From UHGV virus genome UHGV-0133287: a stretch of 45,624 nt of DNA. One strand, given 5' to 3'. The DNA is from a virus. Shown piece by piece: positions 13,626 to 37,586 of this stretch (positions are counted from its first letter, which is position 1; each line of letters starts with the position of its first letter). The position numbers were made by a program, and so were the translations under genes. The notes beneath the pieces were generated by a model, which did no database searches, was not told where the DNA came from, and saw only the letters and a list, made by a program, of their open reading frames with translations.

Positions 13626-13645
13626 AAAAATACGACCTCTTTATA

Positions 13646-21214: not shown

Positions 21215-22594
21215 CTACTTAATCAACGGCCGGAAAGCCGCCAGCACATCATCAGATCGTCCGATTGTTGAACCACCAGGCAACGGCAACTCAAACTCAA
21301 AACGAACAGCTTTCTCCAGACTCGCCCAACTAAGGGAATCATCGTTAATGACGTGCAAATACCAGCTCTTACAGTTGAATATTGACCGCTTAATCCTGAA
21401 ACCATGTACACGACACAACTGCTTCACTTCCTCATCAGAGTGAAACTTCTGGTAAAACCAGTGCCCCTTCCGGTACAACGCGGTAAAACCGTTATGATCA
21501 ATAAAATAAAGCCGGCTTTTGGAACTCGCCGCTTGTGTCTGCTTCAGGACTGTTTCCAGCTCTCCACGGCTACGGCCAGAAAAGAATATTGACCCACCAG
21601 CTTTACACAGCCCTTTCAGAACCGTCAGAACGGACCATTCAGCCTCGACACTATCGACCGAGTTCAAAACGCTATCGCAAATCACGTAGTCGTAACGCCC
21701 TCGCGTTTTTAAGTCGTCCACCAGCGTATCAATCATCCGGTTTGTTGCGGTCCTATCCAGAGTGTTTCCAGCGCCCTTACGGCGGAAAAGCTCAAGATCA
21801 TGCAGGTTATATCCCTTTGCCCTGAGCATTCGCGCGTAGTCTCCCTGACCCGAACCAAAATCAATTCCTCTTGGCGTCTTGGCAATGATCGGGAGGATCA
21901 ACGACTCATACAGGTTTGATTTCAGGCTGCCACCATTACGCAACCGCATAAGCTGCGCATACGTCTGGATGTATGTTGTTTTCTCCAGATGAGAATACTC
22001 AAATACACCATAAGTTTTATTCAGATAACTTTGGTATTTTTCCTTCTCAACATCAGGGATCACAAACACCGTTAGCGGTGTGCGCGTCATCTTCGCTGCT
22101 AATGCATACTGAGCACAGTGAATAACCTCGCCAGACTGCGTAGCAACACAACCACCCCACGGACCATACTTGATAACCAGTTCCGCTATGTTCTTTCGAA
22201 CATATGCCATTTTCGCGCGCATATTGCCTGAGATCTGGCTTGCCGATACCTGAACAAAACCATGCTTATCTTCCAGACCGGACACCCTGCAACGCTCATC
22301 TCCGCTATCAAAATCCGTTCCGTTATGCAGTTGGTTAAACCGTACTTCGTCGTATACCGTCGTTTCACAGGGCAACACATACACCGCAGCACGCGTTATT
22401 CCCAACTTACGTAGCGCCTTCGTCCTTTGGTGTCCCGCCACCAGCAAATCGCCGCGCACTATCAATGGCTTCACAAGCCCCAGCTCCCTGACGCTTTCCG
22501 CCAGCCTCGCAAGATCATCCTCACCGATAAAACGCGGGTTATATTCCGCACCGCGTAGGTGCGTTATGTCGTAATTGAGGTGAAGCATCAGCAC
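21215..22594 (-). CDS. ParB-like N-terminal domain fused to class-I SAM-methyltransferase-like domain
   Basis: 459-aa ORF. N-terminus has LVAGHQRTKALRKLGI (ParB/Srx GxxR motif). C-terminal half has a glycine-rich IDFGSGQGDYA (SAM-binding motif I-like) and YDYVICDSVLNSV. No DPPY/NPPY or PCQ motif seen, so it does not look like a classical DNA amino- or C5-methyltransferase. Confidence 0.55.
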   Translation of the reverse strand: MLMLHLNYDITHLRGAEYNPRFIGEDDLARLAESVRELGLVKPLIVRGDLLVAGHQRTKALRKLGITRAAVYVLPCETTVYDEVRFNQLHNGTDFDSGDERCRVSGLEDKHGFVQVSASQISGNMRAKMAYVRKNIAELVIKYGPWGGCVATQSGEVIHCAQYALAAKMTRTPLTVFVIPDVEKEKYQSYLNKTYGVFEYSHLEKTTYIQTYAQLMRLRNGGSLKSNLYESLILPIIAKTPRGIDFGSGQGDYARMLRAKGYNLHDLELFRRKGAGNTLDRTATNRMIDTLVDDLKTRGRYDYVICDSVLNSVDSVEAEWSVLTVLKGLCKAGGSIFFSGRSRGELETVLKQTQAASSKSRLYFIDHNGFTALYRKGHWFYQKFHSDEEVKQLCRVHGFRIKRSIFNCKSWYLHVINDDSLSWASLEKAVRFEFELPLPGGSTIGRSDDVLAAFRPLIK

Positions 22595-23211
22595 ACCTCC
22601 CCAGCCAGCAATGCGGATACAAATCCGATATAGCTGCCATTATCATCAACATAACGAGATACCGCGCAGTCAAAACGATCCGCTTCCTCATCCGTTGCCG
22701 GGATTTTATGACCTCCAAATGACAGGTACTGAACTTTTACGCCTGATTTGGCCTCATCCTTCTCAAATGGGATATCCATACCCTCTGTGTCATCGTAGAC
22801 CGCCGCACTCAATAAGTTATCCAGTTCGCGCTGAGTAAAACCAATTGAGTCCAGAGCAAAATCATCGGCCGCAAGATCTGCAAGCTCCGCGCTTAACAAC
22901 TCTTCATCCCAACCAGCATTCAGCGGAATACGGTTGTCGGCCAGACGATATGCCTTCTTCTGATTCTCCGTTAGCCCAGCCAGAACAATGCAGGGAACAT
23001 CATCCATCCCCAACTGAGTGGCCGCAGCAATTCGACCATGACCAGCAATTACAACGTTGTTCTCGTCTATCAGGATCGGATTAGTCCATCCGTACTCCTG
23101 TATGCTGGCAACAATCTGATCTACCTGCTCCACGGAGTGTGTGCGAGCGTTCTTTTCATAACCAATCAACACAGAAAGTGGTAAAGAAACCACATTAAGA
23201 TGTTTTGTCAT
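22588..23211 (-). CDS. ParB-like nuclease domain protein (paralog B)
   Basis: 207-aa ORF with IAGHGRIAAA; colinear with paralog A over about 200 aa (roughly half identical by eye); overlaps the downstream fusion gene by 7 bp. Confidence 0.65.
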   Translation of the reverse strand: MTKHLNVVSLPLSVLIGYEKNARTHSVEQVDQIVASIQEYGWTNPILIDENNVVIAGHGRIAAATQLGMDDVPCIVLAGLTENQKKAYRLADNRIPLNAGWDEELLSAELADLAADDFALDSIGFTQRELDNLLSAAVYDDTEGMDIPFEKDEAKSGVKVQYLSFGGHKIPATDEEADRFDCAVSRYVDDNGSYIGFVSALLAGEVC

Positions 23212-23445
23212 GCCGTTTATCCGCTAAAATCCCCTCGCTTGTGCAAGCAAGTGGGCCTCGGTTTGTATCCACGGCACCCTGTGGGTATGAATGACTGTCG
23301 TCAGGTCGCAACTGACGGCGGTCGCCCACCTTCCAGTAATAAAAAAGCCACCAGCATTAACTCCACAGCGAGCTGGAGTTAATGAGGCAGCTTTGGTTTG
23401 CGCATTATCGCAGCCCCTGATAGGCACAAGAGCTGCTGTAATGCG

Positions 23446-23925
23446 TTACGCAGGGATCAAACGGAGGCAGCCGTTATTTACCTCAATACGAGAGTATTCC
23501 GGCTTACCATCAACGATTCCGGTAATGACAAGTTCGCCATCAGACGAGCATTCTTCTTTGTCGTCTTCAAGTACCGCGCCTTCTGGCAAATCAACACAGG
23601 CAAAAACAGGGCAGCCAGGATAACGATCATCTTCCATCGCAATCAGCATCGACTCACCGAACCACTCTGTGGTAGCACGGCCATCAGCCGCCTGATAGTG
23701 AATCAGATACTGGTTTTCGCCATTTGCATACTGAGCACGGGCTTTAACTTCTCCCCATTCGTCACTGATACGCATTGTTACCAGTTGGGATAATTCAAAC
23801 TTAAACGGAACAGCATCTGCACCAATGGCAATCGGTTTATCTTCTTTCTTTTCCATAACATCACCTGAAAATAAAAAGCCCCGCGACACCGCGAGGCTGT
23901 AAGAGTTACTTTCGATAGAAATCAA
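23446..23925 (-). CDS. hypothetical protein
   Basis: 159-aa ORF; an internal Met (MEKKEDKP...) may be the true start. No motif recognised. Confidence 0.3.
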   Translation of the reverse strand: MISIESNSYSLAVSRGFLFSGDVMEKKEDKPIAIGADAVPFKFELSQLVTMRISDEWGEVKARAQYANGENQYLIHYQAADGRATTEWFGESMLIAMEDDRYPGCPVFACVDLPEGAVLEDDKEECSSDGELVITGIVDGKPEYSRIEVNNGCLRLIPA

Positions 23926-24054
23926 GGCGCAATTGCTCCCGCTTACGCCGAAAAGCTCTCTGCGCCACTAAGATGCGCCACAGGACACCAGCGATAACCA
24001 CCAGCGAGATACAAAAACACACGGCCACAACCATCAGAAAAATGCCAACACCAT

Positions 24055-24261
24055 TCATGAAACTATCCATTCTTCAATGAATATCTCCAGTAATGTCAAG
24101 AGATACGCCGTCCCCAGCGCGGTTCCTACCGATATAGCTAAGACAAACCTCAAAGATAACGAGGTGTCTTTCGCTTTTCTCCAGACGTAAGCGCCAGCCA
24201 GAAATACCAACAAATCTCTTATTGGAAGCGGAAACCAGAACAAATCACTCGGCAAGTCCAC
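24055..24261 (-). CDS. hypothetical small membrane protein
   Basis: 68-aa ORF with two hydrophobic stretches. Confidence 0.3.
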   Translation of the reverse strand: MDLPSDLFWFPLPIRDLLVFLAGAYVWRKAKDTSLSLRFVLAISVGTALGTAYLLTLLEIFIEEWIVS

Positions 24262-24263
24262 GG

Positions 24264-24719
24264 TTATATCCTTCCATTCATTTTTATCGGATGACCAGAT
24301 AGCCTTACGCAGTTGAGCTGTAAAGCTCCGGTATCAACTAACTGATCAACTAACATGATTAGAGCTTCATATTCAGAGTGATAGCTAACCTGACGCATTC
24401 GACCGCCGTTGTTCTCCAGAATGTCGGCCACCTTTGCAGCCAACTCGCTTAGACAGGAGAACTTATTCCCATATATCGTTTTATACTCGCGCTTCTGGCA
24501 TTCTTCGGCTTGAGGCTGGTTATCGAGAGCTATCAGCGACCGATGGCTATCAATGAAGTCCACAATCTCATTCAGGCACTCTTTGGCTGCCTCGTCGTGA
24601 CTTTTTCCGTATGCTTCATGGAGGACTTTCATCCTCATCATTGCTCCGTCACACATAATCGAAAGCGCGTAAAGCACATCACTAATCGCCATTTCTTTTT
24701 TGGTGCTTGTCGAAGGCAT
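24264..24719 (-). CDS. hypothetical protein
   Basis: 151-aa ORF packed tightly in the same-strand operon. Confidence 0.3.
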   Translation of the reverse strand: MPSTSTKKEMAISDVLYALSIMCDGAMMRMKVLHEAYGKSHDEAAKECLNEIVDFIDSHRSLIALDNQPQAEECQKREYKTIYGNKFSCLSELAAKVADILENNGGRMRQVSYHSEYEALIMLVDQLVDTGALQLNCVRLSGHPIKMNGRI

Positions 24720-24793
24720 CCCATGTTCTCCTTTGTCTGGATGTAAAAAAGCCCCGGCAATTGCCGAGGCTCGTTGTTCGTTATCGTTACGGT

Positions 24794-24994
24794 TTAATGC
24801 TCGCGTCGTCCGGCGACAACTTCGGATTTGTATTTCAGGTCGCCCAGCAAGAATTGCAGTTTAAGCATCTTTGCCGCCGTGTAGTTCCCTGATTCCACAA
24901 CCTCTTTCATGAGGTCATAAACGGCCGCTACATCATCAGCCAGGAACTCTTTGCGTTGCTGCTCAGTCGCACGTTTGAAGGAAATACGCATCAC
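24794..24994 (-). CDS. hypothetical protein
   Basis: 66-aa ORF overlapping the upstream gene stop by 4 bp. Confidence 0.3.
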   Translation of the reverse strand: MMRISFKRATEQQRKEFLADDVAAVYDLMKEVVESGNYTAAKMLKLQFLLGDLKYKSEVVAGRREH

Positions 24995-25260
24995 TCATCA
25001 TCTCCTGCCGCACATACAACCTCACAAAAAACATCAGCGGAATGTTTCTCCTTGAACGAATGACGCTCAAAACCGCACTCAATATCAGGCGCAAAAACAT
25101 CCACCACATACGGTCTTTCAGAATGTTCGTTTTCCCAACGATAAACCGTAGTGACGTTGAAATGTTTTAACGCTTCACGGAACTCAACGCTGCCCGTCAG
25201 GTTTTTTGAGGTCAGGTATTGCAGGAGGTTTTTTACTACTTCACGGTCTTGTACTTTCAT
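24991..25260 (-). CDS. hypothetical protein (first gene after leader copy A)
   Basis: 89-aa ORF whose ATG follows GGAGATAACCCG at the end of the conserved leader cassette. Confidence 0.35.
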   Translation of the reverse strand: MKVQDREVVKNLLQYLTSKNLTGSVEFREALKHFNVTTVYRWENEHSERPYVVDVFAPDIECGFERHSFKEKHSADVFCEVVCAAGDDE

Positions 25261-25377
25261 CGGGTTATCTCCGGTTTAACCAGGGCGGGTATCGCTCGGT
25301 TTCGGGTATAACCATAGGAAATTTTTTCCCATCCGTAAAGCGCTTTTTATATAAATCTATAATTATATAATTCTATG
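25261..25377 (-). promoter_or_regulatory. conserved promoter/leader cassette, copy A
   Basis: About 115 bp nearly identical to 32437-32557 and 41314-41430. In the minus-strand sense it carries an AT-rich palindromic block (TATATAATTATAGATTTATATAAA), a TTTAC(G/A)-N17-TATGGT promoter-like pair, then a ~45-nt leader ending GGAGATAACCCG-ATG. Confidence 0.5.
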
Positions 25378-25960
25378 CCACTTGCCAGAGAGCATCATGC
25401 AACTGGATACCTCCATTGCACTGGTTGCCCCAGCCATGCCAGCCATCAGGTAAATCACCGCGAGCAAACAGCTCAATACGAGGAACATCACCTAACAGCT
25501 TTACCAGCTTGTCACGGACCACATCAGGCTTCCGAGAATGCTCCAGACGAGGCGATGTAAACGACTGAATGATCCCCGCATCAAGACGGGTCGGCAGTTT
25601 GCCTTTTACCGCAAACAAGCAATCTTCACTGTTTGCACGAGTCATATGCCCCATCCCCATCACCAGCTTATCTGGTTGTCGGCTACCACATTTGTTCCAT
25701 GTGAAGCCCTTCATGGTCATCAGCCTGAATCCCCATGCTTTAACCACCAGCAACGCTTCTTCTGGCTGAGTCGGAACCCACCACATGGCCAACAAACACG
25801 ATTCAGGATTAGCAAGCTGCCAGACAGGAATACGAGCAATCTCCTCAGCTTTCATCGTTGGATACTTAAAACCAGCTCCACGATTCCCATCCTTACACTT
25901 GTCTTTGTATTCCCAGGGGGGATCTGCATAAATCAGATTAAACAATGCAATTGCCTCCAT
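25373..25960 (-). CDS. DNA N6-adenine methyltransferase, MT-A70 family
   Basis: 195-aa ORF with N-terminal LIYADPPWEY (the DPPW catalytic motif). Confidence 0.7.
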   Translation of the reverse strand: MEAIALFNLIYADPPWEYKDKCKDGNRGAGFKYPTMKAEEIARIPVWQLANPESCLLAMWWVPTQPEEALLVVKAWGFRLMTMKGFTWNKCGSRQPDKLVMGMGHMTRANSEDCLFAVKGKLPTRLDAGIIQSFTSPRLEHSRKPDVVRDKLVKLLGDVPRIELFARGDLPDGWHGWGNQCNGGIQLHDALWQVA

Positions 25961-26267
25961 GTTAATTGTGCCTCCGGCGCTTATCTCCGGCAGTCATAAC
26001 GCTGGCCAGCTCTACAGCAAACACAACGAAAAGGGCACTAACCAGACTGATTAATGCCCTTGCCTGTTGTGTGCCGGATATCGCCCGACAACGCTGTTTT
26101 GGTAACACGGCTACAGTTCCGTGCCGCTCCAGCTTTTACCCCTTTGCGGATAACAGGCCCTGCCTGTAACTTAGCCCCACGTTCGCCCGAAATGCGCACT
26201 AGGCACGCATAAAGATGAGCACGAAGAAGTAACTCCACCGCGCTTATCTTTATGTGTGAGAGTGAAT

Positions 26268-26343
26268 TGGTGGCCCCTACCGGATTTGAACCGATGACCG
26301 TGCGATTATGAGTCGCCTGCTCTAACCACTGAGCTAAGGGGCC
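26268..26343 (-). tRNA. tRNA with CAU anticodon (Met or lysidine-type Ile2)
   Basis: 76-nt minus-strand sequence GGCCCCTTAGCTCAGTGGTTAGAGCAGGCGACTCATAATCGCACGGTCATCGGTTCAAATCCGGTAGGGGCCACCA folds by hand into a cloverleaf: 7-bp acceptor stem, GCTC/GAGC D-stem, CUCAUAA anticodon loop, TTCAAAT T-loop, encoded CCA. The 5' half resembles E. coli ileX as I recall it. Confidence 0.8.
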
Positions 26344-26512
26344 ATATTTGATTTGTTTGTCTGGTGTGGCGCCGCGCACGAAAATCCCAGCCAATAAATT
26401 CAGGATTTTTGGGCGCGGCGGCATATCAGACAAACATGGTTGATGCGTGCGCCCATGAGAAAAGCGCATAGAATGTTGTAACTATATATTTATATAATTA
26501 TAGAAATATATA

Positions 26513-26722
26513 TTACTTTGGACAGTTGATTTCCCATGCCCTGTTATGAGCCAGAATATCTTTCTTTGTCTGTCGGTCCATAACATCGATGTCGTGATCA
26601 GTCAGGTAGATGGGCTTTACCCAATCACAGGCGGTATCAACCACCACCGGGACGCTTCCACGACTCCCGCAGCTCGCGATCAACATCGTCATCAGCCATA
26701 TGGTTAACACTCTGCTGTACAT
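26513..26722 (-). CDS. o-spanin (Rz1-like lipoprotein)
   Basis: 69-aa ORF with signal peptide and lipobox LIASC; overlaps the 3' end of the Rz-like gene in another frame. Confidence 0.5.
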   Translation of the reverse strand: MYSRVLTIWLMTMLIASCGSRGSVPVVVDTACDWVKPIYLTDHDIDVMDRQTKKDILAHNRAWEINCPK

Positions 26723-26915
26723 TCCCCACCTCTTTTGTCACTTCTATACGCCGCTCCGCAGTGGCTTTTACGGCGGCTGCATTCTCATTAATGCGCTGCT
26801 TTTCAGCTTCATCTTCGGCCTTTTCTCGCCCCTTCATACGACCAAAACCAAACGCGCCAAATGCAACCAATATAATTGTGCCAATAAATGACAAAACAGC
26901 CTTCAAACCAGTCAT
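26637..26915 (-). CDS. i-spanin (Rz-like)
   Basis: 92-aa ORF with an N-terminal TM helix then a charged coiled-coil-like region; directly downstream of the endolysin. Confidence 0.5.
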   Translation of the reverse strand: MTGLKAVLSFIGTIILVAFGAFGFGRMKGREKAEDEAEKQRINENAAAVKATAERRIEVTKEVGNVQQSVNHMADDDVDRELRESWKRPGGG

Positions 26916-27454
26916 ACCACCACTCGCTCTTTCATCCAGCCGTAGACAAACGACTCATTAGCCTCGCGCTTCTCCGCCAACTCCAGATAGCGTTCGCCCT
27001 GCGTACAGTTCAGCGACGTCAGCATCACCCGTTCGCCGTCTTTTCCCCGATTCCCAAGATAAGCACGCAGCGCATTAATGGTACGTGGACCGATTCGTCC
27101 GTCTGCATCCAAATCGGGATACAGCTTCCCACGCAGGTTGAACACATTCAGCCAGCGTTGAAGCATTTTTGACGCCACTGTTGGCCCCATGTTGACGCCC
27201 GTGTCGCACAGTTCTGCGGCAATATCCGGCGACAGAGTTGCTATCTGGTCAAAACGTGGGCCGTACCAGTAATCAGCCTCAAGGATTTCCAGAGCCTGTT
27301 CGCGAGTTAAATCGCGCATATCGCCACGGTATCCATGAGCACGGGCAGTGTTCTGAGTAATGCCCCACTTTGTTGGGCCTCCCTTGTCGTCAGGGTGATC
27401 CACATAGCCGCCCTCTTTTCCAAGAACGCTGTTAAAAATCTCATCTTTGGTCAT
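26912..27454 (-). CDS. endolysin (GH108-type muramidase with PG-binding domain)
   Basis: 180-aa ORF with LGKEGGYVDHPDDKGGPTKWGIT, matching the GH108 EGGY...DPGG.T.YGIT signature. Confidence 0.7.
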   Translation of the reverse strand: MTKDEIFNSVLGKEGGYVDHPDDKGGPTKWGITQNTARAHGYRGDMRDLTREQALEILEADYWYGPRFDQIATLSPDIAAELCDTGVNMGPTVASKMLQRWLNVFNLRGKLYPDLDADGRIGPRTINALRAYLGNRGKDGERVMLTSLNCTQGERYLELAEKREANESFVYGWMKERVVV

Positions 27455-27773
27455 GATTAAACCCTAATGCGTCAACTATCCGCGCCAGATTGCCCCTGAA
27501 ATACAGAACAACGATGCAGATAATCAGATTTCCAATAACCACCAGCCAGTGGGATTCTTGATAAAGACCGAACACATAACGGAAGGGAACATTGGCGTAT
27601 ACAATGACGTAGATATAAGCCAGAAAGGAAACAAATGGACGATGCCTGGAGTCTTTCCGTCGATAAAGCATCAGCGCCATTACTATTACTGTGCAAAGCA
27701 CCGCATTAATCAGTGCTGACGGGTCACTGCTTACCATTTGAACCCCCTCCACGTAAGCGGGAAAGCATTCCAA
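27441..27773 (-). CDS. membrane protein in lysis cassette (possible holin/antiholin partner)
   Basis: 110-aa ORF with about three hydrophobic helices; overlaps holin 3' end and endolysin 5' end. An internal Met (MVSSDP...) may be the start. Confidence 0.4.
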   Translation of the reverse strand: MECFPAYVEGVQMVSSDPSALINAVLCTVIVMALMLYRRKDSRHRPFVSFLAYIYVIVYANVPFRYVFGLYQESHWLVVIGNLIICIVVLYFRGNLARIVDALGFNHDQR

Positions 27774-28119
27774 AGATGCTACCGAGATCCTGGCTGTTTA
27801 CGAACGTGAGGATTTTAATGGTCAATGCAGCCACAATAACCGCACCAAGCGCATCCAGAGGACGATCGTTGTAGCTGGTCCATTTGGCAAGAAATGAGCC
27901 AACTAACGGCGCTCCAATCACTCCAACAATGAACGATGTAAAGAAATAGCCAATCAGCTTGAGACGGCTAATATTCACCGCTGTAGCAACATAGAAAACA
28001 GCGCCAGCAAATGCCCCGAATACAACGCCGTAATCAATACCAGTTGCAATACCAAAAACGCTGGCACCCATCAGGCCACCAGCAGCAACGGCCGTACCGG
28101 AAATTGGTTCTGCTGACAT
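27724..28119 (-). CDS. holin
   Basis: 131-aa multi-TM Gly/Ala-rich ORF heading the lysis cassette; GAGGA RBS. Confidence 0.55.
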   Translation of the reverse strand: MSAEPISGTAVAAGGLMGASVFGIATGIDYGVVFGAFAGAVFYVATAVNISRLKLIGYFFTSFIVGVIGAPLVGSFLAKWTSYNDRPLDALGAVIVAALTIKILTFVNSQDLGSIFGMLSRLRGGGSNGKQ

Positions 28120-28130
28120 TGAAATCCTCG

Positions 28131-28164
28131 TTAAAAAAAAAGCCCCGCCGAAAAAGGCAGGGCT
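28131..28164 (-). terminator. intrinsic terminator 12 nt upstream of the holin start
   Basis: Minus strand: AGCCCTGCC-TTTTTC-GGCGGGGCT hairpin followed by nine U residues, ending 12 nt before the holin ATG with only an RBS between. Confidence 0.55.
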
Positions 28165-28309
28165 TCATAAAGCAACAAATTACGCGGTAATCGCTTAACG
28201 CAGTTTTACTACGTTAAATGAAACACTACACCCAGTTACCACCTAAAACAAGGTTTCTCCATAAAAAAACCTTCAAAACGTGGTTAATCGATCAATAAAA
28301 AAACAATTC

Positions 28310-28585
28310 TCACAGTAGTGCAGAAAAGAATAGCGGCTTAACTGCTTTCCTCACCTCACTAGCATACATCCCCGCAGCTATCTCAGTTGTGAACAAACGC
28401 CCTCCAACTAGCCATGCAACAGGTGCAGATGCCAGGGATGCCAATGCAATTTCATCGGTAGCAAGCTCTCTTTCAAGATACTCACGAAATCCGGGGTTAA
28501 TAGTTACCGTATCCAACATTCTCTGGCGCGCCACCTTACGTTCACGAATATGGGCGATCAATTGCTCTTTGGTACAAGTAGCCAC
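28310..28585 (-). CDS. hypothetical protein
   Basis: 91-aa ORF upstream of the pre-holin terminator. Confidence 0.3.
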   Translation of the reverse strand: MATCTKEQLIAHIRERKVARQRMLDTVTINPGFREYLERELATDEIALASLASAPVAWLVGGRLFTTEIAAGMYASEVRKAVKPLFFSALL

Positions 28586-28588
28586 AGG

Positions 28589-29089
28589 TTATCCCTTCCC
28601 ATCTTTGACTGTGCGATCAGCTTTTTCGCGTTTATGGCTCTCATAAAACCATCGGTGAAGCTCCATTAGCTCTTTATCAATAGGCTCATATTCACGGTCA
28701 AAATATGCCTGAGCATCTTTTTCATCTTCACTCGGTAACTCACCAGGACCAAACAAAGTGTTATAAATCCACATCAGTGCATTTTCTGCATTACCAGTTT
28801 CTCTCCATTCAATAATGGCAGCACGCATAACCAGGAGGTTTTTGCCAAAGAACAGATCGAGTTCTTTAAATCGCTTACGAATATATTCGTTTTCGCCTTC
28901 AAGAGCTGCGATGCGCTTATCTTTGCCTTCCTGCTCGTCCAGTAGTGCCAGCATAGCCTCTGGAGTTGCTAAATCCTGCCAGTTATCTGACGTGTCGCTT
29001 GCAGTTCGCAGCATAATTTCTTCTTCTGCTGCCTCACGCAGCGCCAGTGTGTCGATGTTGCTCATTGTGCCTCCTCGATTTCGTCCCAT
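28589..29089 (-). CDS. hypothetical protein (Ea22/Ead-like N-terminus)
   Basis: 166-aa ORF; internal start MSNIDTLALREAAEEE... shares its N-terminal pattern with 29292-29777. Confidence 0.35.
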   Translation of the reverse strand: MGRNRGGTMSNIDTLALREAAEEEIMLRTASDTSDNWQDLATPEAMLALLDEQEGKDKRIAALEGENEYIRKRFKELDLFFGKNLLVMRAAIIEWRETGNAENALMWIYNTLFGPGELPSEDEKDAQAYFDREYEPIDKELMELHRWFYESHKREKADRTVKDGKG

Positions 29090-29295
29090 TCCACCCAGGC
29101 ATTCTCTCCATCAGCATCGATTTCACCTTTGTGACCGCATTTGGAACAGACGGCCTCATCACCCGCCCACAAAGAATCTTTGGTTACCGACCATCCTGTT
29201 ACCTTGGCTTTGCCGTGCTGGCACTTAGGGCAATCATCAAGCCATTCGACTTCGACCGTTAACGGACCAAATCCATGTTCAGTTCGGATGCTCAT
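29062..29295 (-). CDS. small zinc-ribbon protein
   Basis: 77-aa ORF with CPKC...CSKC cysteine pairs. Confidence 0.35.
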   Translation of the reverse strand: MSIRTEHGFGPLTVEVEWLDDCPKCQHGKAKVTGWSVTKDSLWAGDEAVCSKCGHKGEIDADGENAWVEWDEIEEAQ

Positions 29296-29777
29296 AACTG
29301 AACTCCTTTGCGAATCTGGGCGGCTAACTCGTCACATATGTGCGTCAAAGAGCAAAGTTTGATTGATGGATGTTCTCGCATCATCTCTACCCCCTGTGCC
29401 CGCACTTCAGACAGGAAAGCATCAGTGGCTGGCATATTTCCTGTTGCCTTCATGGCCTCCAAAATAACCAGAACGCCATCTCTCCCAATCTCCTCACAGA
29501 TAACCTCGGTGCTGTCGCCAACAACATCGCAAAATGCCTGAACTGCTTTACGAGCCAGCTCACTCTCCGCCGACAGCGCCGCGAGATTAGTCTCAAGCTC
29601 TGCAATTCGGCACATTGCATCAATATTTGTGTCCTCCAGCCGCTTAATTTCATCCAGTAGCGCCAGCACAACCTGCGGTGTGACCTTCATACGAAACGCA
29701 AGCAATTTTTGCGGCGTTGCCACGACTTTTATTGCTTCTGCTGCCTCACGCAGTGCCTGGTAATTAATTTCGCTCAC
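29292..29777 (-). CDS. hypothetical protein (Ea22/Ead-like N-terminus)
   Basis: 161-aa ORF opening MSEINYQALREAAEAI..., a paralogous N-terminus to 28589-29089. Confidence 0.35.
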   Translation of the reverse strand: MSEINYQALREAAEAIKVVATPQKLLAFRMKVTPQVVLALLDEIKRLEDTNIDAMCRIAELETNLAALSAESELARKAVQAFCDVVGDSTEVICEEIGRDGVLVILEAMKATGNMPATDAFLSEVRAQGVEMMREHPSIKLCSLTHICDELAAQIRKGVQL

Positions 29778-30463
29778 TGGTTGCCCTCCTGAATACGCTT
29801 AAACTCAATTACCCATACCCACGGGTTAGATAGCCAGTTATCCTGCCCGTAAATACCGCGCCAGATATCACCAAAGCCAACGCGATAAACAGCTTCCGGC
29901 GGTGTAATCTTGTACGTCGCCGGAGATGCGCCTTCCGCTTTAGCATCTGCCTCGCTCATGTCATGCAGCCGTTCCACACGCACGTCGGTAATTTCCAGCA
30001 AAATACGCGAAGCCCAGCGCGGCATGTGAATTGATGGACGCCACCCGCCATCAAACTTTTCATTCACAGTGTGAGGTTTCCAGTCGGCATCATCGGGTAT
30101 CGACCATAAGCCGTAATCACCCGGCTTTTGCTCACAACTGGCCCGATAAATCCTTGCTGCGTTCTTCTCATCGCCACGACAAAGGTTGTCGTTCCAGTCC
30201 ACACTGCAACCATCCTCATTGCCTAATATCGCCCACGCCTCACGGACCCATATGCGATCACCAACGTTACCGAACGGGCATAAACCATGTTCAGGTGCAT
30301 CCATAACGTGGGTATAGACACCATTGCGTTTCTTTGTCGGTTTACGGATAACCAGGCAGTTATCGGCCCTGACATTTTTTACAGGTCGGCGAGTCTGCGT
30401 CTTCCTTCCTTCGAGGATGGCCCTAACCATATCGTCATTAAAAACAACACCACGTTCTTTCAT
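29774..30463 (-). CDS. ASCH/PUA-like domain protein
   Basis: 229-aa ORF with N-terminal AILEGRKTQTRRP and C-terminal WVWVIEFKRI, resembling ASCH-domain proteins such as YqfB. Confidence 0.4.
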   Translation of the reverse strand: MKERGVVFNDDMVRAILEGRKTQTRRPVKNVRADNCLVIRKPTKKRNGVYTHVMDAPEHGLCPFGNVGDRIWVREAWAILGNEDGCSVDWNDNLCRGDEKNAARIYRASCEQKPGDYGLWSIPDDADWKPHTVNEKFDGGWRPSIHMPRWASRILLEITDVRVERLHDMSEADAKAEGASPATYKITPPEAVYRVGFGDIWRGIYGQDNWLSNPWVWVIEFKRIQEGNQ

Positions 30464-30714
30464 TTAGAAGCCACCTTGTTCAATTTCCGGCGACAAGACA
30501 CGCAATCATCAGGACTCTCAAAAGTGTCTGGCTCACGGTAATCACCAAAATACATCCAACGGCCGCAAATGCTGGTTACTTCACCTTCATTAAAATAATG
30601 ATGTTTATTCGCCTTCATTGGCCTGACCCATCCGGCATTTTTCTTGCTCACTTCAACTCCTCCCGACGACGTTCCTGAAGCTCTAGCATTGCGGCTCGGA
30701 AATCCTGCCACCAT
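30460..30714 (-). CDS. hypothetical small protein with CxxC pairs
   Basis: 84-aa ORF; the real start may be the internal MKANKHHY. Contains CGRW and CVSC. Confidence 0.25.
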   Translation of the reverse strand: MVAGFPSRNARASGTSSGGVEVSKKNAGWVRPMKANKHHYFNEGEVTSICGRWMYFGDYREPDTFESPDDCVSCRRKLNKVASK

Positions 30715-31013
30715 TCCTCATCTGCAACGGGGGTGTTCCGCTCCAGCACCTTGTCCGCATCAGCGATCAGGTTTGCCAGACTCTTGTCTGAAATCTTCGT
30801 TACCGGAGTCGTTGGTTGCTCAACCTGCCCGATAGGTTTTATCGTGCTCAAAAGGAGGCGACGGCGGGAAAGTGGTGCCCCACAACGACGGCCATCTTCC
30901 TTGCGATATGTTTCTTTCGGACCAACACACCATGTTGTCGGCGTTTCGCGCAACTTCACTCTTTTCTCACCATCAATGGTGATGATTATTCCGGTATGGG
31001 TTTTGATGCTCAT
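30648..31013 (-). CDS. hypothetical protein
   Basis: 121-aa ORF in the same-strand operon; no motif recognised. Confidence 0.3.
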   Translation of the reverse strand: MSIKTHTGIIITIDGEKRVKLRETPTTWCVGPKETYRKEDGRRCGAPLSRRRLLLSTIKPIGQVEQPTTPVTKISDKSLANLIADADKVLERNTPVADEEWWQDFRAAMLELQERRREELK

Positions 31014-31312
31014 GCCACAGCCCCTCTCAACGGCTTAACTTTGGCTAATAAGGTGTTAAACAACATGGAGTTAGGATTCATGCCAAATGGCAATTCCGGT
31101 TTAGCGGAGTAGTACAGGCAACCATTTATTTTCCTGGTTGTTATCTGTCCTTCGGCAACCATGCTTCTCAGTCTGCAACGCATAGAGTTCTGCGACACAC
31201 CAATGTGCTCCGCGATTACGTCCACTTTTGAACATGGGTGATCGGTCAGGAAATTAATCACATCTTGGGGGTTAATAATTTTGCGTTTCATTGTCGAGGC
31301 GTCCTTATACAT
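31010..31312 (-). CDS. hypothetical DNA-binding protein
   Basis: 100-aa ORF preceded by the AT-rich palindromic motif at 31311-31337. Confidence 0.3.
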   Translation of the reverse strand: MYKDASTMKRKIINPQDVINFLTDHPCSKVDVIAEHIGVSQNSMRCRLRSMVAEGQITTRKINGCLYYSAKPELPFGMNPNSMLFNTLLAKVKPLRGAVA

Positions 31313-31336
31313 TTATATAAATATATAATTCTATAT

Positions 31337-31358
31337 ACGGCGGGAGACATCCCGCCGT
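31337..31358 (-). terminator. hairpin (possible attenuator) after the 355-aa gene
   Basis: Perfect 9-bp stem ACGGCGGGA-GACA-TCCCGCCGT followed on the minus strand by an AT-rich run that merges into the palindromic promoter motif. Confidence 0.35.
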
Positions 31359-31368
31359 AGGCTTACTG

Positions 31369-32436
31369 TCAGGCTTTCAATAGCGATTCTTTCAGATATC
31401 GGGCATCAGCCAGGGCGTTTGGAGTAATCTTGCGAACCCATGCATTACGGGTTGGACTCCACTTAAAGGCGCGTGATTTAAGCAGCGAACGAATGTTTGC
31501 CTCTGGTTTGCCAGGGAAATAAAACAGGATGCGGTTATCCTCTGGATCTATCTCCATAGAAAAGCCGTCGTATTCTTCGCGCTGTGCTCCTGTTACAGAC
31601 TTGACCGATTCAAGCTCCTTAATACGGCTCTGTAGTCGTTTGATTTCGGCGTTATTGTTGCTCAGTGCGTATGAAGGGAATCCGATGCGCCCACAGAAAT
31701 CTCCGGCCAGTAACTCTTTGGCTTCGCTTTCTGTAAACCTGAGATCGATTAATGCAGAAAGCTGCTGTAATTGGTCTTTTTTGTATTTGCGAATGGCCTT
31801 ATTTGCGGCCTTCATTTTGACGTGTGACTTCATGCAGCCTTGCAGCTTACGAAGCAACTTAAATAGCGCATCAGGATCATCAGACGAAATTCCATTACGA
31901 CCAACACCTGCGGCTTTGCTCTCGTAGTGTGATGCTTTACTTTCGCATTCAACAAACGCTTTTCTGAATAACGCATCAGCTTTAGACAAACGGCGGCGAT
32001 GGCCTTTCGCGCTATAATGGTCAACTAAAATCGGCTGGCCTAACGGGATCACATCCAACAGGTCATGCGCTCGCTTATGCGCTACCGCACCTTCTTTTCT
32101 GGCTTTTTCTGCACGAGCAATATATCGGGCAAGACGCGCGTTCTGGCGTTCCTGATAGGTGTTTACGTAATCATCTCCGCGCTGCTGCTGTTCAAGCCAT
32201 GCTTTGCGCAGATCTTCTGTTACGTCCACCAGCTCCGCAGGGATACAACCAGTTTGGGCTTCATAAGAGTAACCATCCTCATAGATACGCCCATCGTCTT
32301 CAACAAAGAAAAAGGTTTCGTGCTCATCGCTTTTGACCATACGACCATTAACATGGCGTAATAGGTAGCCAGTATCAGTGCTTAACAGGCTGTTAGGGTT
32401 GTTGATCCAGTCAGAAATAATTACTTGTTTATTCAT
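31369..32436 (-). CDS. hypothetical protein, first gene after leader copy B
   Basis: 355-aa ORF with a charged coiled-coil-like central region; possibly a DUF3560-like phage/plasmid protein (uncertain). Confidence 0.4.
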   Translation of the reverse strand: MNKQVIISDWINNPNSLLSTDTGYLLRHVNGRMVKSDEHETFFFVEDDGRIYEDGYSYEAQTGCIPAELVDVTEDLRKAWLEQQQRGDDYVNTYQERQNARLARYIARAEKARKEGAVAHKRAHDLLDVIPLGQPILVDHYSAKGHRRRLSKADALFRKAFVECESKASHYESKAAGVGRNGISSDDPDALFKLLRKLQGCMKSHVKMKAANKAIRKYKKDQLQQLSALIDLRFTESEAKELLAGDFCGRIGFPSYALSNNNAEIKRLQSRIKELESVKSVTGAQREEYDGFSMEIDPEDNRILFYFPGKPEANIRSLLKSRAFKWSPTRNAWVRKITPNALADARYLKESLLKA

Positions 32437-32557
32437 CAGATTTCTCCGGTTTAACCAGGGCGGGTATCGCTCGGTTTCGGGTATAACCTTAGGAAATTTT
32501 TTCCCACCTGTAAAGCACTTTTTATATAAATCTATAATTATATATTTATAGATTTTC
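32437..32557 (-). promoter_or_regulatory. conserved promoter/leader cassette, copy B (directly downstream of the Q-like gene)
   Basis: Near-identical to copies A and C over about 110 bp; begins 49 bp downstream of the Q-like gene stop. Confidence 0.5.
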
Positions 32558-32605
32558 GATGTTCCCGATGTCTACACACCATCAAAACAGCTCAAAATGA
32601 CACTT

Positions 32606-32983
32606 TCACTCTCTTCGCTTTTTCAAATAGTCGACAACATACGCCCTGGCTTTTGCCAGCTTCCGGCGATACTGTCTGAGACTAAGAGAAAGGGCGTGGG
32701 CTTTATCAATATGCGGTGCATTTATGTCGAGGCCCCGAATCTCCCACGCCCCGTATTCAATTCGGACAACCAGCGCCGCAGTCTCATCAACTACCGTGAG
32801 GGCCGTCACCGCTCCCTCGATACTGGTTTCCAGTGAGTCATTTGGTGCGCCGCCCCCTCCGGTAAACTGGCAACGCGTAACCATCATCATTTCTAACATC
32901 GACGCGAAACCGCTACGGGCGTTGCAGCCATTGCGCACCCACAGCGCCCATAGCTCAAACAAGCTATCCAGATCGCGTCTCAC
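32606..32983 (-). CDS. antitermination protein Q-like (QuuD-type)
   Basis: 125-aa ORF; N-terminus DLDSLFELWALWVRNG resembles the LERWGAWAANN pattern of small Q antiterminators such as DLP12 QuuD, and it sits after nin-like genes as in lambdoid phages. Confidence 0.5.
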   Translation of the reverse strand: MRRDLDSLFELWALWVRNGCNARSGFASMLEMMMVTRCQFTGGGGAPNDSLETSIEGAVTALTVVDETAALVVRIEYGAWEIRGLDINAPHIDKAHALSLSLRQYRRKLAKARAYVVDYLKKRRE

Positions 32984-32986
32984 TGT

Positions 32987-33319
32987 TCAGATCTCCCGTA
33001 TCGTGACGGGATAAAGCGCCTCTACCTGCTTTTTCTTCATGATGTAGACGTCTGTTCGCACACCTTTAGTGTCGACACAATCAATCGTCCCATCGTCATA
33101 AAACACCATGAAATCAAGTTTATAAACGACACCACCTGGCAGATGAAAAGGCACCTGCATAAGAAACGTCACAACGCGGCCAGCTTTTCTCAGTAGCTTC
33201 AGTTCGCAGTAGTAATCAGCCTCTTTTTTGCTATCAAAAGCGATATCATCGACAACAGTTTTTTTATTGCCGTATTTGCTTTTCCTGGTCGCTGGTTTGC
33301 GAAAGCCGGTATATCTCAT
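32987..33319 (-). CDS. conserved phage protein (nin-region-like)
   Basis: 110-aa ORF opening MRYTGFRKP...SKYGNKKT, a pattern I associate with small lambdoid nin-region proteins. Confidence 0.35.
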   Translation of the reverse strand: MRYTGFRKPATRKSKYGNKKTVVDDIAFDSKKEADYYCELKLLRKAGRVVTFLMQVPFHLPGGVVYKLDFMVFYDDGTIDCVDTKGVRTDVYIMKKKQVEALYPVTIREI

Positions 33320-33720
33320 TTGGTATCCCCTGGTACTTCACCAAGACTAAGATCAAACCCAATTTCGTCTTTAACTGACTGCGGCAACAGCTCCCACGTC
33401 TGCGCACACAAAAATTCATCGGTGCCATAACGCTCAACAAAGCGAGCACAATTACTCAGGGGAGGGTGACGAACGGCAATATGCGGAGGCACGCGCCCAC
33501 CACCAGGCACAACACCGCGATGATGTGGTGCGCACAACCCAAAGCTATGGAAGTGGCAATTCTCATCAACGCTGCCGTAATCAGGATCGTGATGTAGCTC
33601 CGTCCACAGCTCTGGATTCTCAATTTCACGGCCATCAATAATGCAAGCTATGCAACCCACGTGAGTGAGCACCGCTTGTATATAAAGTTTCTCTTTCTTC
33701 GTTGGTGTACGTCCGTTCAT
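33316..33720 (-). CDS. putative zinc-binding recombination nuclease (NinG/Ref-like)
   Basis: 134-aa ORF with GCIACIIDG, HHDPDYG, CHFHSFGLCAPHH Cys/His clusters resembling NinG/HNH-type proteins. Confidence 0.3.
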   Translation of the reverse strand: MNGRTPTKKEKLYIQAVLTHVGCIACIIDGREIENPELWTELHHDPDYGSVDENCHFHSFGLCAPHHRGVVPGGGRVPPHIAVRHPPLSNCARFVERYGTDEFLCAQTWELLPQSVKDEIGFDLSLGEVPGDTK

Positions 33721-33953
33721 CAGCGCCCCTTACCATTGATAAAGAGGTTGAACTCGTTGATTAACTGGACATACATGCTTCTGGCCGCGTAGTTCTTTGC
33801 CAGCTCTTTACGGGATGAGATCCCGCAAAACTCACGCAGAATCACAGAGGCCTCAGAACTGTTTGAAACGTTCTTCCCTGTTTTACTGGTCAGAAAGCGC
33901 CAGAATTGGGGATTCTGGCAATGCATCGCAGCACCGCGAACATAACTACTCAT
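33720..33953 (-). CDS. hypothetical protein
   Basis: 77-aa ORF in the nin-like cluster. Confidence 0.3.
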   Translation of the reverse strand: MSSYVRGAAMHCQNPQFWRFLTSKTGKNVSNSSEASVILREFCGISSRKELAKNYAARSMYVQLINEFNLFINGKGR

Positions 33954-34465
33954 TGATGGCCCCCGTCATTTCTGGTGCTTTTCACCGTGCGGCTTCTTAA
34001 AAACCTGCCATCACGAACAACAGACACTTCTCGTTTACCCAACCTCATTTCACGGCGGTAACATTCAGAAAATGCCTCGTCCGGCATCATATAAATGCGA
34101 CGCTTCGCCTCCGTATCCAGAAGGGAACGGCTTGGGGTTACATATAAAAACGACTCATCAATAGGGACAAAACCACGAGCAAGAATTGCTGGCAGAATGC
34201 CAGGAAGAACGCAGAAAACAGCTCCACGATGCAGCAACATCTGGTACTCCATGACCTCCGTTATCCCCGTGACTACTGTTACGGTGTCACGTCTGTTACG
34301 GCTGGCAACCAGTCGCTGCACACGTCCAATTTTCTGATCTACAGATAGATGTTTGCTATCGTTATCAATATGATCGATAACAAATCCTTTAATCGTTTGA
34401 TCAAGGTAGTGCACCACCTGCGATTGAATCTGGTGATTATCACCAAAGAAGGCCAGAATCATCAT
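33950..34465 (-). CDS. hypothetical protein
   Basis: 171-aa ORF following the Cro-like gene; no motif recognised. Confidence 0.3.
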   Translation of the reverse strand: MMILAFFGDNHQIQSQVVHYLDQTIKGFVIDHIDNDSKHLSVDQKIGRVQRLVASRNRRDTVTVVTGITEVMEYQMLLHRGAVFCVLPGILPAILARGFVPIDESFLYVTPSRSLLDTEAKRRIYMMPDEAFSECYRREMRLGKREVSVVRDGRFLRSRTVKSTRNDGGHQ

Positions 34466-34956
34466 TCCTCAAGCCTCCCAAGTGCTGAACGCCGGGCGTT
34501 GCTAATCTCCTTATGAATCAGCTCGATATCGCTGGAATCTTTATTCTTAAGCTCCAGCACGGTAATCGCATCACGAACCTCTGAAACGGTTACGTGTGAG
34601 TGTTTCCAGCGAGCAATGAATCGCGGACCGCGTAGATTGCAACGCTCCGCAGGCATCCCCAGCTCAGAGAAAACCGCTTTCAGCCTTGATAAGCAGTTAA
34701 CAGGGAGATTCCCTTTGATCTTGTTCTGCCGAACCGATGTGCCATCGCTACGCTGGCGCTGACGTTCGGCAAAATCTGCCGCCCATTGCTGGACGTTAAT
34801 CCGGCCTTCCGAATACGCCACCAGCAGCGTCAGGTTATCCGCACGAGGGAATCTCTCGAAGCGATACCAGGCACCAATCAGTGATGACGTAAAGCCAAAC
34901 TTTCTGGCAACACCAATTTGGCCTCCATTTTCGTCAACCCACTCCTGAAAGGTCAT
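34462..34956 (-). CDS. Cro-like HTH regulator (YdaS-like) with C-terminal extension
   Basis: 164-aa ORF divergent from the CI-like gene; N-terminus GGQIGVARKFGFTSSLIGAWYRF...RINVQQ resembles YdaS/Cro-type HTH proteins. Confidence 0.5.
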   Translation of the reverse strand: MTFQEWVDENGGQIGVARKFGFTSSLIGAWYRFERFPRADNLTLLVAYSEGRINVQQWAADFAERQRQRSDGTSVRQNKIKGNLPVNCLSRLKAVFSELGMPAERCNLRGPRFIARWKHSHVTVSEVRDAITVLELKNKDSSDIELIHKEISNARRSALGRLEE

Positions 34957-34975
34957 TTAACGAACTCCAGTTAAA

Positions 34976-35093
34976 ACCACGATATGTGGTATTAAAACCA
35001 CATATCGTGAGTTTTTCAATGGGCGAAACAAAAAATAACCTTCTATTTGTGGTCCACCTCTCGTCTTACCATGTGAAAACCACTAAATGTGGT
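34976..35093. promoter_or_regulatory. immunity operator cluster (ACCAC-N5-GTGGT)
   Basis: In the 174-bp divergent intergenic region: accacgatatgtggt (34976-34990), accacatatcgtga (34997-35010), inverted gtggtccacc (about 35048-35057), accactaaatgtggt (35079-35093). A fourth site accacattttgtggt lies at 35830-35844. Confidence 0.55.
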
Positions 35094-35130
35094 AATGTAT
35101 AAATAACCCACCATTCACGATTGATGAGAC

Positions 35131-35787
35131 ATGAAAAGCAACGACGAGAACATCAAGAAAGAAATAGGTCTGCGCATTCAGACTCTACGGAAACAATCCG
35201 GCATGACTGCCGGAGATCTCCAGCAAGTCACTGGAATAGGCTTAAGCACCTTGCAGAACTATGAGGCCGGATTAAGACAACCATCTATACCTGCCATCAA
35301 GAAAATCGCGCACGCCCTAAAAGCATCAGCGCCTTACATCGCGTGCTTAACAGATAACCCGTTCCCACCCCAGAATACTAACGCTCCTGTTATTCCTGGG
35401 CTTGTAGCTATAAAAAATGACATAGCATCGCACGCCGGAGAAAAGCCTGTGCTGGCGATAGAACAGGAGATTTTACGAAGCAAGAACATCAACCCATCGT
35501 CTCTGTCAGTTCTCCAGAGCAACGATGAGTTAATGTCACCAACAATATCCCCTGGCTCCCAAGTCCTGATTAATACAGACGATACAGAGATTCATGAGGG
35601 GATCTATGCCCTTGAAGACAGAAATGGCCTAGTTGTTTTGAGGCACTGTAGAGTCATACCGGGTGACAATGCTGTTATGCTGTCAACCGAAAGGGATGCT
35701 GAAATGAACACTAAGCATCTGAATAACGAGGAATTTAAGCGTTATAAAGTTCTTGGCCGCGTAGTTAGTGTTGTCAACTGGTTATGA
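35131..35787 (+). CDS. CI-like repressor (HTH-XRE plus S24 LexA-like peptidase domain)
   Basis: 218-aa ORF with an N-terminal HTH (LRKQSGMTAGDLQQVTGIGLSTLQNYEAG) and a C-terminal S24-like domain. Confidence 0.75.
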   Translation: MKSNDENIKKEIGLRIQTLRKQSGMTAGDLQQVTGIGLSTLQNYEAGLRQPSIPAIKKIAHALKASAPYIACLTDNPFPPQNTNAPVIPGLVAIKNDIASHAGEKPVLAIEQEILRSKNINPSSLSVLQSNDELMSPTISPGSQVLINTDDTEIHEGIYALEDRNGLVVLRHCRVIPGDNAVMLSTERDAEMNTKHLNNEEFKRYKVLGRVVSVVNWL

Positions 35788-36254: not shown

Positions 36255-36389
36255 CTGCAAGCGGGCTAACGCCCGCTTATATGATTATAGATTTATATAA
36301 TTATATAAAACGCTTTTCATCCGCCAAAAAGTTGGTTATGCTTACCTCGTTCTATAAATATAGATTTATAGAATTATATAATCAAACAC

Positions 36390-37058: not shown

Positions 37059-37093
37059 TATATAATTATAGATTTATATAAGAGGGGATACAC

Positions 37094-37562: not shown

Positions 37563-37586
37563 ATAAAAAAGGCCCCCGAAGGGGCC
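37563..37586 (-). terminator. intrinsic terminator (minus-strand; convergent transcription stop)
   Basis: GGCCCC-CGAA-GGGGCC hairpin preceded on the plus strand by an A run, giving a U run on the minus strand. Confidence 0.45.

Follow-up and report, generated by a model that had tools for sequence, protein, structure and literature searches.

How transcription reaches the lysis genes is the question raised by a locus in UHGV virus genome UHGV-0133287, of which one strand of 45,624 nucleotides (nt) was analyzed (hereafter the window). In this study, we show that on the minus strand a very strong intrinsic terminator stands 13 nt before the start codon of a holin gene, the first late gene, and that the same 190-nt intergenic gap (28120-28309) contains a promoter-like site followed by a pause-like element whose geometry recurs in related phages. 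Moreover, we find that the last clearly early gene encodes a protein remotely homologous to the Q antiterminator of phage 21. We consider it reasonably probable that the gap is a compact lambda-type PR'/qut/tR' cassette fused to the holin start, with its putative Q gene displaced 4.4 kb upstream. The features on which this reading depends are the following (bp, base pairs; aa, amino acids).

28246-28251, minus strand: candidate -35 hexamer TTGTTT of a PR'-like late promoter, from a matrix scan and comparison with relatives
28223-28228, minus strand: candidate -10 hexamer TAGTGT, 17 nt after the -35 hexamer
28211-28216, minus strand: -10-like hexamer TAACGT, separated by exactly 6 nt from the -10 hexamer; it would span about +1 to +6 and is a candidate sigma-dependent pause element
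28196-28216, minus strand: predicted 5' hairpin of the late transcript, UAACGUAG-UAAAA-CUGCGUUA, fold energy -9.0 kcal/mol
28142-28163, minus strand: terminator stem-loop, 8-bp stem and 6-nt loop
28133-28141, minus strand: U9 tract of the terminator, read from the sequence
28125-28129, minus strand: holin Shine-Dalgarno sequence GAGGA, 5 nt before the ATG
27724-28119, minus strand: holin, first late gene (PF16931 Phage_holin_8, E 1.7e-37; phrog_198 'holin')
32606-32983, minus strand: gene for a 125-aa Q21-like protein, putative late antiterminator by profile homology, last clearly early gene
32987-33319, minus strand: DUF1064 gene (PF06356, E 6.8e-19), immediately upstream of the Q-like gene
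34991-35019, minus strand: best sigma-70-like promoter of this strand, TTGAAA-17-TTTAAT, with the top position-weight-matrix score in 22000-35300

The arms of the terminator, GCCCUGCC (28163-28156) and GGCGGGGC (28149-28142), pair over 8 bp (seven G-C and one G-U) around the minus-strand loop UUUUUC (28155-28150); the stem can be extended to 11 bp (28166-28139), and the energy of the hairpin is -16.2 kcal/mol. Terminators were scored with our own implementation of a d'Aubenton-Carafa type score, d, which combines hairpin energy per nt with a weighted T tail. The holin-proximal site has d = 54.4, the highest value among the 15 sites that score above 0 on either strand of the window (45.6 kb), and the maximum in simulated sequence with the dinucleotide transitions of the window was 21.8 (44 × 10 kb, 440 kb in all). 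A separate terminator scan also ranked this site first within 25000-35000. By sequence criteria, which ask for a GC-rich hairpin with 7-9 U residues directly behind it, it is thus confirmed as a real and very strong intrinsic terminator. The initial annotation had placed a hairpin with nine U residues at 28131-28164, 12 nt before the holin ATG; the hairpin and the U9 tract stand, with coordinates corrected to those listed above and a gap of 13 nt. An open reading frame (ORF) of 44 aa that starts at 28168 inside the terminator was rejected as spurious, as no ribosome-binding site precedes it and the related L092 and L093 lack its ATG.

Between the U tract and the holin ATG (28119) lie only the 13 nt AACGAGGAUUUCA (28132-28120), the sole content of which is the GAGGA Shine-Dalgarno sequence. 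Because 13 nt cannot hold both a promoter and a ribosome-binding site, transcription of the holin gene must pass the terminator, and the earlier statement that no promoter can be accommodated behind it is borne out. Upstream of the terminator, in the 190-nt gap, a promoter-like site is found, with its candidate pause element about 75 nt upstream of the U tract. The RNA predicted to end at this terminator would be about 84 nt long (28216-28133). The pattern TAG[TA]GT-N3-10-TAACGT occurs a single time on the minus strand of the window. As read from the sequence, a T7 tract (28263-28269) sits at -47 to -53 of the candidate promoter, in the place of UP elements, and it might be such an element. 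The gap travels with the holin gene as a mosaic unit, and the gene upstream of it varies. None of the Rfam families matches the 190-nt region; the window matches only ryfA, isrK, C4 and tRNA, all elsewhere.

The arrangement resembles the canonical late-gene cassette, in which a Q gene, PR', a sigma-dependent pause element, a terminator and the late genes follow one another (10.1101/651190; PMC9388147). A -10-like element in the early transcribed region defines the sigma-dependent pause at which Q is loaded (PMC9191641; 10.1101/651190), pause elements and the +16/+17 pause have been defined in general terms (PMC9191641), and complexes that carry Q disregard terminators for thousands of base pairs (PMC9388147).

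The geometry of promoter and pause element is not peculiar to the window. Taking the 260 nt that precede the first strong terminator behind the Q-like gene, we searched the relatives for a compound motif consisting of a -35-like hexamer, 17 nt, TAnnnT, 6 nt and TAnnnT. It is present once in each of five independent lineages, the spacings always being 17 and 6 nt: TTGTTT/TAGTGT/TAACGT in the window, the same core being found in L092 and L093; TTGAAT/TAGTGT/TAACGT in L099/L113; TTGTAA/TACCTT/TAACGT in Vibrio phage VPHZ6; TTGAAA/TATGTT/TATTGT in PhiPS02/K303; and TTGACG/TATTGT/TATCGT in 10N.237.312.C11_PE002A. The -10 hexamer TAGTGT is identical in L092, L093 and L099/L113 and takes the form TAnnnT in the Vibrio lineages. 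With a background rate of 0.015 per 260 nt, five matches in about eight lineages have a binomial probability near 5e-8 by our own arithmetic. Conservation with L092 and L093 covers about -75 to +21 and ends with the 28196-28216 hairpin, while both of them have another terminator sequence and a holin of another family. The first 20-35 nt or so of the predicted RNA fold as a hairpin in every fitting lineage as well as in lambda, with stems of differing sequence (examined in L099, VPHZ6, L114, PhiPS02 and lambda). A scan of viral contigs for the exact pattern of the promoter core returned the same contigs again and nothing further.

The position of the terminator recurs as well. In the relatives, 2.4-6.3 kb separate the Q-like gene from the first strong terminator, and another 13-50 nt lead from there to the first late gene, which is a recognizable holin in three lineages (families phrog_198, phrog_20 and phrog_785). 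PhiPS02/K303 has 13 nt in front of an annotated holin, and VPHZ6 has as many in front of the gene of a single-pass membrane protein; the 10N.237 phage has 15 nt before its first late gene, and L092/L093 have about 49 nt before the phrog_20 holin. Because gaps of 13-15 nt in relatives compare with about 45 nt in lambdoid prophages and about 400 nt in lambda, a tight fusion of terminator and start codon appears to be a recurrent trait of this phage group.

The putative antiterminator has no function assigned by Pfam, PHROGs or NCBIfam; its PHROG is one of unknown function and RefSeq calls it a 'hypothetical protein'. Its close family is small and unannotated, and the order DUF1064 gene, Q-like gene is conserved, including in Vibrio phages VPHZ6 and 10N.237.312.C11_PE002A. 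A profile of close relatives only (A1) led to a single locus in genome contigs and matched nothing in PDB or Pfam, and a broader profile (A2) was therefore needed, built from 110 of the 130 family clusters at 50% identity that an exhaustive profile search had yielded. In an hmmsearch against PDB, the family profile matched phage-21 Q (6JNX/6JNY, 6P18-6P1C) with an E value of 3.6e-5 over residues 5-91, a stretch that contains an LELWxxW motif common to the family and to phage-21 Q. Comparison by hhalign with a small alignment of Q21, PF06530 and DUF1133 gave a probability of 86% (E 4.9e-6). We conclude that the protein is a remote member of the Q21 superfamily that fails formal Pfam membership. 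The Q-like antiterminator gene named at 32606-32983 by the initial annotation thus gains a profile link to phage-21 Q, and it stays without annotation in Pfam, PHROGs or NCBIfam.

Several results weigh against the interpretation of the gap as a Q-dependent late promoter. With our own matrix the candidate core promoter scores 5.2 bits, below the 99.9th percentile of random positions (6.2), and a consensus promoter scan of 25000-35000 did not call it. A direct-repeat search for a Q-binding element (QBE) gave no confident candidate; the best one, GGTG occurring twice 11 bp apart in the spacer, is not found in all lineages. TAGGTG is conserved in the window and in L099, the Vibrio lineages share TGGCGGTTT instead, and there is no motif common to all. 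The strict compound motif is absent from the L095/L096/L102 lineage, and L098 is a near miss. With regard to the Q-like protein, it has no match to PF06530 at E ≤ 0.01 and reaches no Pfam threshold; among close relatives 1 of 24 matches (E 0.074), and among family representatives 10 of 110 match weakly, at best with 1e-4. Fold searches agree with the Q21 link at Foldseek E values of only 0.3-0.9, and the most conserved segment, residues 23-46, is modelled with a predicted local distance difference test score (pLDDT) below 50. Lastly, the Q-like gene and the cassette are not adjacent, since 4.4 kb with nine ORFs separate the Q-like stop (32606) from the candidate promoter (28251). To our knowledge, the Q gene adjoins the cassette in every characterized Q system. 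The same separation is also seen in the relatives.

In L095, L096 and L102, whose Q-like protein is 59-65% identical, the place of the promoter/pause motif is taken by a GC-rich segment. This conserved segment of about 170 nt (TTTGAAACGATGGCGCGG...GCCGGGGCCACTCGCGTTAAGTGGC; L095 about 14500-14720, L096 about 14470-14685, L102 about 13480-13695) precedes the first strong terminator and may be a structured leader RNA.

The remaining features that bear on how the late genes might be expressed are given here.

35131-35787, plus strand: CI-like repressor gene (phrog_4 match)
31337-31358, minus strand: GC-rich hairpin, then an AT-rich palindrome; no U tract, not a canonical terminator
26513-27773, minus strand: rest of the lysis cassette, all after the first holin (PF05449, PF05838, PF09374)
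27441-27773, minus strand: second holin-family gene, by Pfam match among these lysis-cassette models
26912-27454, minus strand: GH108 endolysin, by Pfam match among the same models
26637-26915 and 26513-26722, minus strand: ORFs in spanin position, by position and lipobox-like sequence only
26268-26343: tRNA with anticodon CAT, Met by ARAGORN, its homologue tRNA-Ile in RefSeq
26018-26059, minus strand: weak terminator-like hairpin after tRNA-Met, d = 6.4
24745-24770, minus strand: strong intrinsic terminator, d = 35.5
23868-23897, minus strand: strong intrinsic terminator, d = 40.0
23341-23391, minus strand: intrinsic terminator upstream of the ParB-like and terminase genes, d = 21.6

It seems most likely that the terminator acts as the tR' of a compact PR'-type cassette and also ends the early operon, because a conserved promoter-like site and pause element occupy the same intergenic region. 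The promoter activity, pausing, Q binding and Q-dependent readthrough that we infer from these sequences would combine as follows. Early transcripts from about 35019 would express the Q-like protein and the accessory genes and stop at 28133-28141, because no other minus-strand terminator with d above 1.5 lies between the early promoter and 28141. In the absence of the antiterminator, polymerase starting at the late promoter would make an RNA of about 84 nt and stop at the same terminator. The Q21-family protein would load onto the polymerase paused at the late promoter and make it terminator-resistant, and the modified polymerase would then read through the holin-proximal terminator and through those at 26032, 24750, 23877 and 23346, switching on the lysis genes and subsequently the packaging and morphogenesis genes. 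Four further minus-strand terminators (26032, weak, 24750, 23877 and 23346) do lie between the lysis and packaging genes, and this fits processive antitermination. The antitermination proposed by the initial annotation thus holds up in that the holin-proximal terminator must be passed and four more fit a processive mechanism; what is not supported is the start of the transcript at the Q gene.

The late genes could be expressed, in a different manner, as the continuation of a long transcript that begins at or upstream of the Q-like gene, either at the early promoter or at one located within the 170 nt that follow the Q gene, the polymerase being modified far upstream and the terminator serving only as an attenuator. 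There is no strong terminator from about 35019 to 28141, so such transcripts would reach the terminator, and a promoter-like TTTACA-17-TAAGGT, behind an AT-rich palindrome, does occupy the canonical place directly after the Q-like gene. This promoter was tried as PR' and ruled out because it belongs to one of three near-identical modules (about 94%) that precede unrelated genes, because no -10-like element follows its -10 hexamer, the geometry of a -10, 6 nt and a -10-like element thus being lacking, and because it is missing in L092/L093 and in the Vibrio phages, whose next gene abuts or overlaps the Q-like stop and leaves no space for a promoter. What is conserved instead is the promoter/pause motif beside the terminator, and we regard a long transcript as unlikely. 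Given the conserved promoter-like site about 75 nt upstream of the U tract, the single Q-dependent late transcript running from the Q gene that had been proposed earlier is not supported. Nor did the hairpin at 31337-31358 prove to be the second attenuation point suggested there: its stem exists (31358-31337, -16.9 kcal/mol), and with the next letters AUAUAGAAUUAUAUA, a 3' sequence also given as AUAUAGAAUU, there is no U tract and d is -25.9.

The weakness of the core promoter and the small size of the Q-like protein (125 aa) would also suit a sigma-R4-like activator, or a sigma appropriator, of a weak late promoter, with the holin expressed through strong initiation and leakage at the terminator. 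We find this quite unlikely, as activation alone would be very inefficient against a U9 terminator with d = 54 and four more before the structural genes; moreover, the profile links are specific to Q21 and involve the N-terminal two thirds, outside the helix-turn-helix, and it is Q proteins, not activators, that are loaded by means of a -10-like element at +1 to +6. A further view would be that the terminator merely ends the early or accessory operon, stabilizes its 3' end and insulates the lysis genes, lysis then depending on a constitutive low-level leak or on a host-dependent mechanism with no relation to the Q-like gene. The sequence is compatible with this, and co-directional genes do occupy 6.9 kb before this terminator, the first strong one, is reached. 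However, this view gives no account of why a promoter/pause motif is conserved about 75 nt upstream, why terminators of E. coli and Vibrio phages repeatedly stand 13-15 nt from the first late gene, or why a Q21-like gene occurs together with them, and we consider it very unlikely. The preferred reading remains that of a Q-dependent PR'/qut/tR' cassette next to the holin.

With regard to early expression, the promoter at 34991-35019 is likely to be the early promoter that expresses the Q-like gene. It faces away from the CI-like repressor gene and overlaps a perfect 13-bp inverted repeat, CACGATATGTGGT / ACCACATATCGTG (34975-35020), which flanks its -10 hexamer TTTAAT; a related half-site, ACCACAT, lies about 70 nt upstream. 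Repeat and half-site are probably operators of the CI-like repressor (35131-35787). As an observation in its own right, the consensus scan of 25000-35000 returned 1 sigma-70-like site, with 12.8 ± 3.6 expected from shuffles, a marked depletion.

The three modules mentioned above start at about 41420, 32550 and 25375 on the minus strand and precede the genes 40933-41313, 31369-32436 and 24991-25260. Each is about 108 nt long and comprises a palindrome, TTTACA-17-TAAGGT or TATGGT, and a 45-nt leader. The AT-rich palindromes share the core TATAATTATA, of which there are six exact copies (0.09 expected), all intergenic; sites of the family are 25348-25383, 26483-26526, 31306-31341, 32523-32558, 36296-36305, 37061-37070 and 41411-41420, and the plus-strand copy at 36296 carries TTTTCA-17-TATGCT. 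They are unlike the CI-type operator of the early promoter, and relatives have different AT-rich palindromes right after the Q-like stop. The palindromes may represent a dispersed operator or a UP-like element of accessory-gene promoters.

Between 34956 and about 1500, the credible genes lie almost without exception on the minus strand. A short early operon ending with the DUF1064 and Q-like genes is followed by about 4.3 kb of accessory genes (DUF3560, winged-helix regulator, ASCH, Ead/Ea22-like), then by the lysis cassette, the tRNA, a methyltransferase and small variable genes, and finally by ParB-like genes, terminase, portal, tail sheath and further tail genes. Immediately upstream of the CAT tRNA there is a 34-nt inverted repeat (26354-26436; 85% complementary, arms 15 nt apart). 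Further along, 11 nt lie between the T tract of the terminator at 23868-23897 and the ATG at 23856, and about 25 nt between the end of the terminator at 24745-24770 and the ATG at 24719; since strong terminators thus lie directly before these genes too, the fusion of terminator and start codon is not restricted to the holin in this element. On the other side of the early region, isrK (38223-38295, plus strand) and C4 (38320-38407, plus strand), together with ryfA (37565-37862, minus strand), match Rfam above the gathering score; the isrK-C4 pair is just upstream of a 380-aa ORF (38645-39787) and resembles the secondary immunity region immI (c4/ant) of P1 type.

The Yersinia phages vB_YpM_39/41/44, annotated with hypothetical proteins throughout, are 97-99% identical to parts of the window, which also matches circular, non-mobilizable E. 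coli plasmids of about 48-51 kb, e.g., pMB9272_3 (NZ_CP103524.1). Because of these matches to both phages and circular plasmids, the element appears to be a circular phage-plasmid of about 48 kb. The pSLy3 phage-plasmid group (SSU5 supergroup) was judged to be the wrong home for it, as elements of SSU5 type are about 100 kb in size. The cassette is carried by 70 of 5,426 complete E. coli genomes, nearly always on plasmids of 46-57 kb, and the carriers include the reference strain ATCC 25922 / Seattle 1946, whose plasmid of 48,488 bp has the cassette with 97-98% identity (NZ_CP117232.1, 16383-16573); in nearly all records listed, the 190-nt cassette is without an annotated feature. The presence of the cassette in such a strain makes the proposal readily testable.

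If the proposal is true, the Q-like proteins, which are at present 'hypothetical protein' in RefSeq, GenBank, Pfam and PHROGs, would form a fourth recognizable sequence group of Q-type antiterminators, and a Q gene and its PR'/qut/tR' target would not need to adjoin. This would matter for the annotation of late-gene control in phage-plasmids and Vibrio prophages, and it would help to predict when lysis genes, and the cargo genes downstream of them, are expressed. More tentatively, and with doubt prevailing, there could be an unrecognized widespread Q21-like branch in E. coli phage-plasmids of about 48 kb (that of ATCC 25922 included), in relatives from other enterobacteria and in Vibrio temperate phages, perhaps with PA0613 of the R-pyocin locus as a member. 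In this branch the Q gene would no longer stand beside its cassette, the cassette would be joined to the first late gene, and the gap of about 13 nt, which is conserved between Vibrio and E. coli, would be functional in itself. The hairpin with its U tract might, for instance, also stabilize the 5' end of the holin message or enhance its translation, or might ensure that no basal holin is made.

PA0613, of the NCBIfam family NF051483, was the other relative suggested by the comparisons. A functional study of PA0613 was not found in a literature search; it is named among 'adjacent regulatory genes' (PMC11871291). The Q-like protein shows weak full-length similarity to this family (residues 1-123, E 2.5e-4), and PA0613 is likewise a small protein encoded just upstream of a holin, the R-pyocin holin PA0614 of Pseudomonas aeruginosa; however, the score of 21.3 bits falls short of the curated 100-bit cut-off. 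The likeness to the Q21 family (PF06530; 6P18, 6P19, 6P1A, 6JNX, 6JNY) comprises the profile homology over residues of about 5-90, including LExWxxW, a predicted sigma-R4-like C-terminal helix-turn-helix domain and a similar size (125 aa here, 162 aa in Q21). In the Q21 family the sigma-R4-like fold has an interrupted helix-turn-loop-helix, and the N-terminal part builds the RNA-exit 'nozzle'. In contrast to these likenesses, identity is only about 16-22%, under all Pfam thresholds, the Q-like protein has a distinct, highly conserved GFASMLEMMMxTRCQFxGGGG segment with a low-confidence model, and no QBE of two 8-bp direct repeats is recognizable here.

Lambdoid prophages L011-L081 (IMG/VR), whose holin is 82% identical, likewise carry a holin of Phage_holin_8 type that one or two intrinsic terminators directly precede. 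They differ from the window in that recognizable Q genes (PF06530/DUF1133 or PF03589) lie immediately upstream, the distance from Q stop to holin start being as little as 152 nt, and in that about 45 nt separate the last terminator from the start codon, with a CCCCTC...GAGGGG structure behind this terminator. The stretch from this terminator to the holin start is highly conserved in these prophages, as CCCCTC-N7-GAGGAC...AAGAGGGGGC (e.g., L046 5940-5995). As pairing is possible between CCCCTC and the ribosome-binding site GAGGGG, their holin may be under translational control.

The lambda PR' promoter (NC_001416), TTGACT-17-TAAATT-6-AACGAT, has the same 17- and 6-nt spacings as the candidate promoter described here. 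As in the lambdoid Q cassettes of lambda, 21 and 82, a short terminated leader RNA is predicted (about 84 nt here), a strong intrinsic terminator precedes the holin, the lysis and then the structural genes follow on the same strand, and the putative antiterminator gene closes the early operon after a nuclease/resolvase-type gene. In lambda, the terminated leader is 194 nt long, and we take AACGAT to be its pause element. Unlike in these cassettes, the Q gene is not directly before the PR' unit, an integrase gene lying between them in the Vibrio relatives; several further strong terminators are found within the late operon; and the terminator is 13 nt from the holin start, compared with about 400 nt in lambda. 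Taken together, the system described here would correspond to the known lambda-type Q switch, a textbook mechanism, in which the apparent variations are a divergent, unannotated Q21-like protein, a displaced Q gene and a terminator fused to the ribosome-binding site of the holin.

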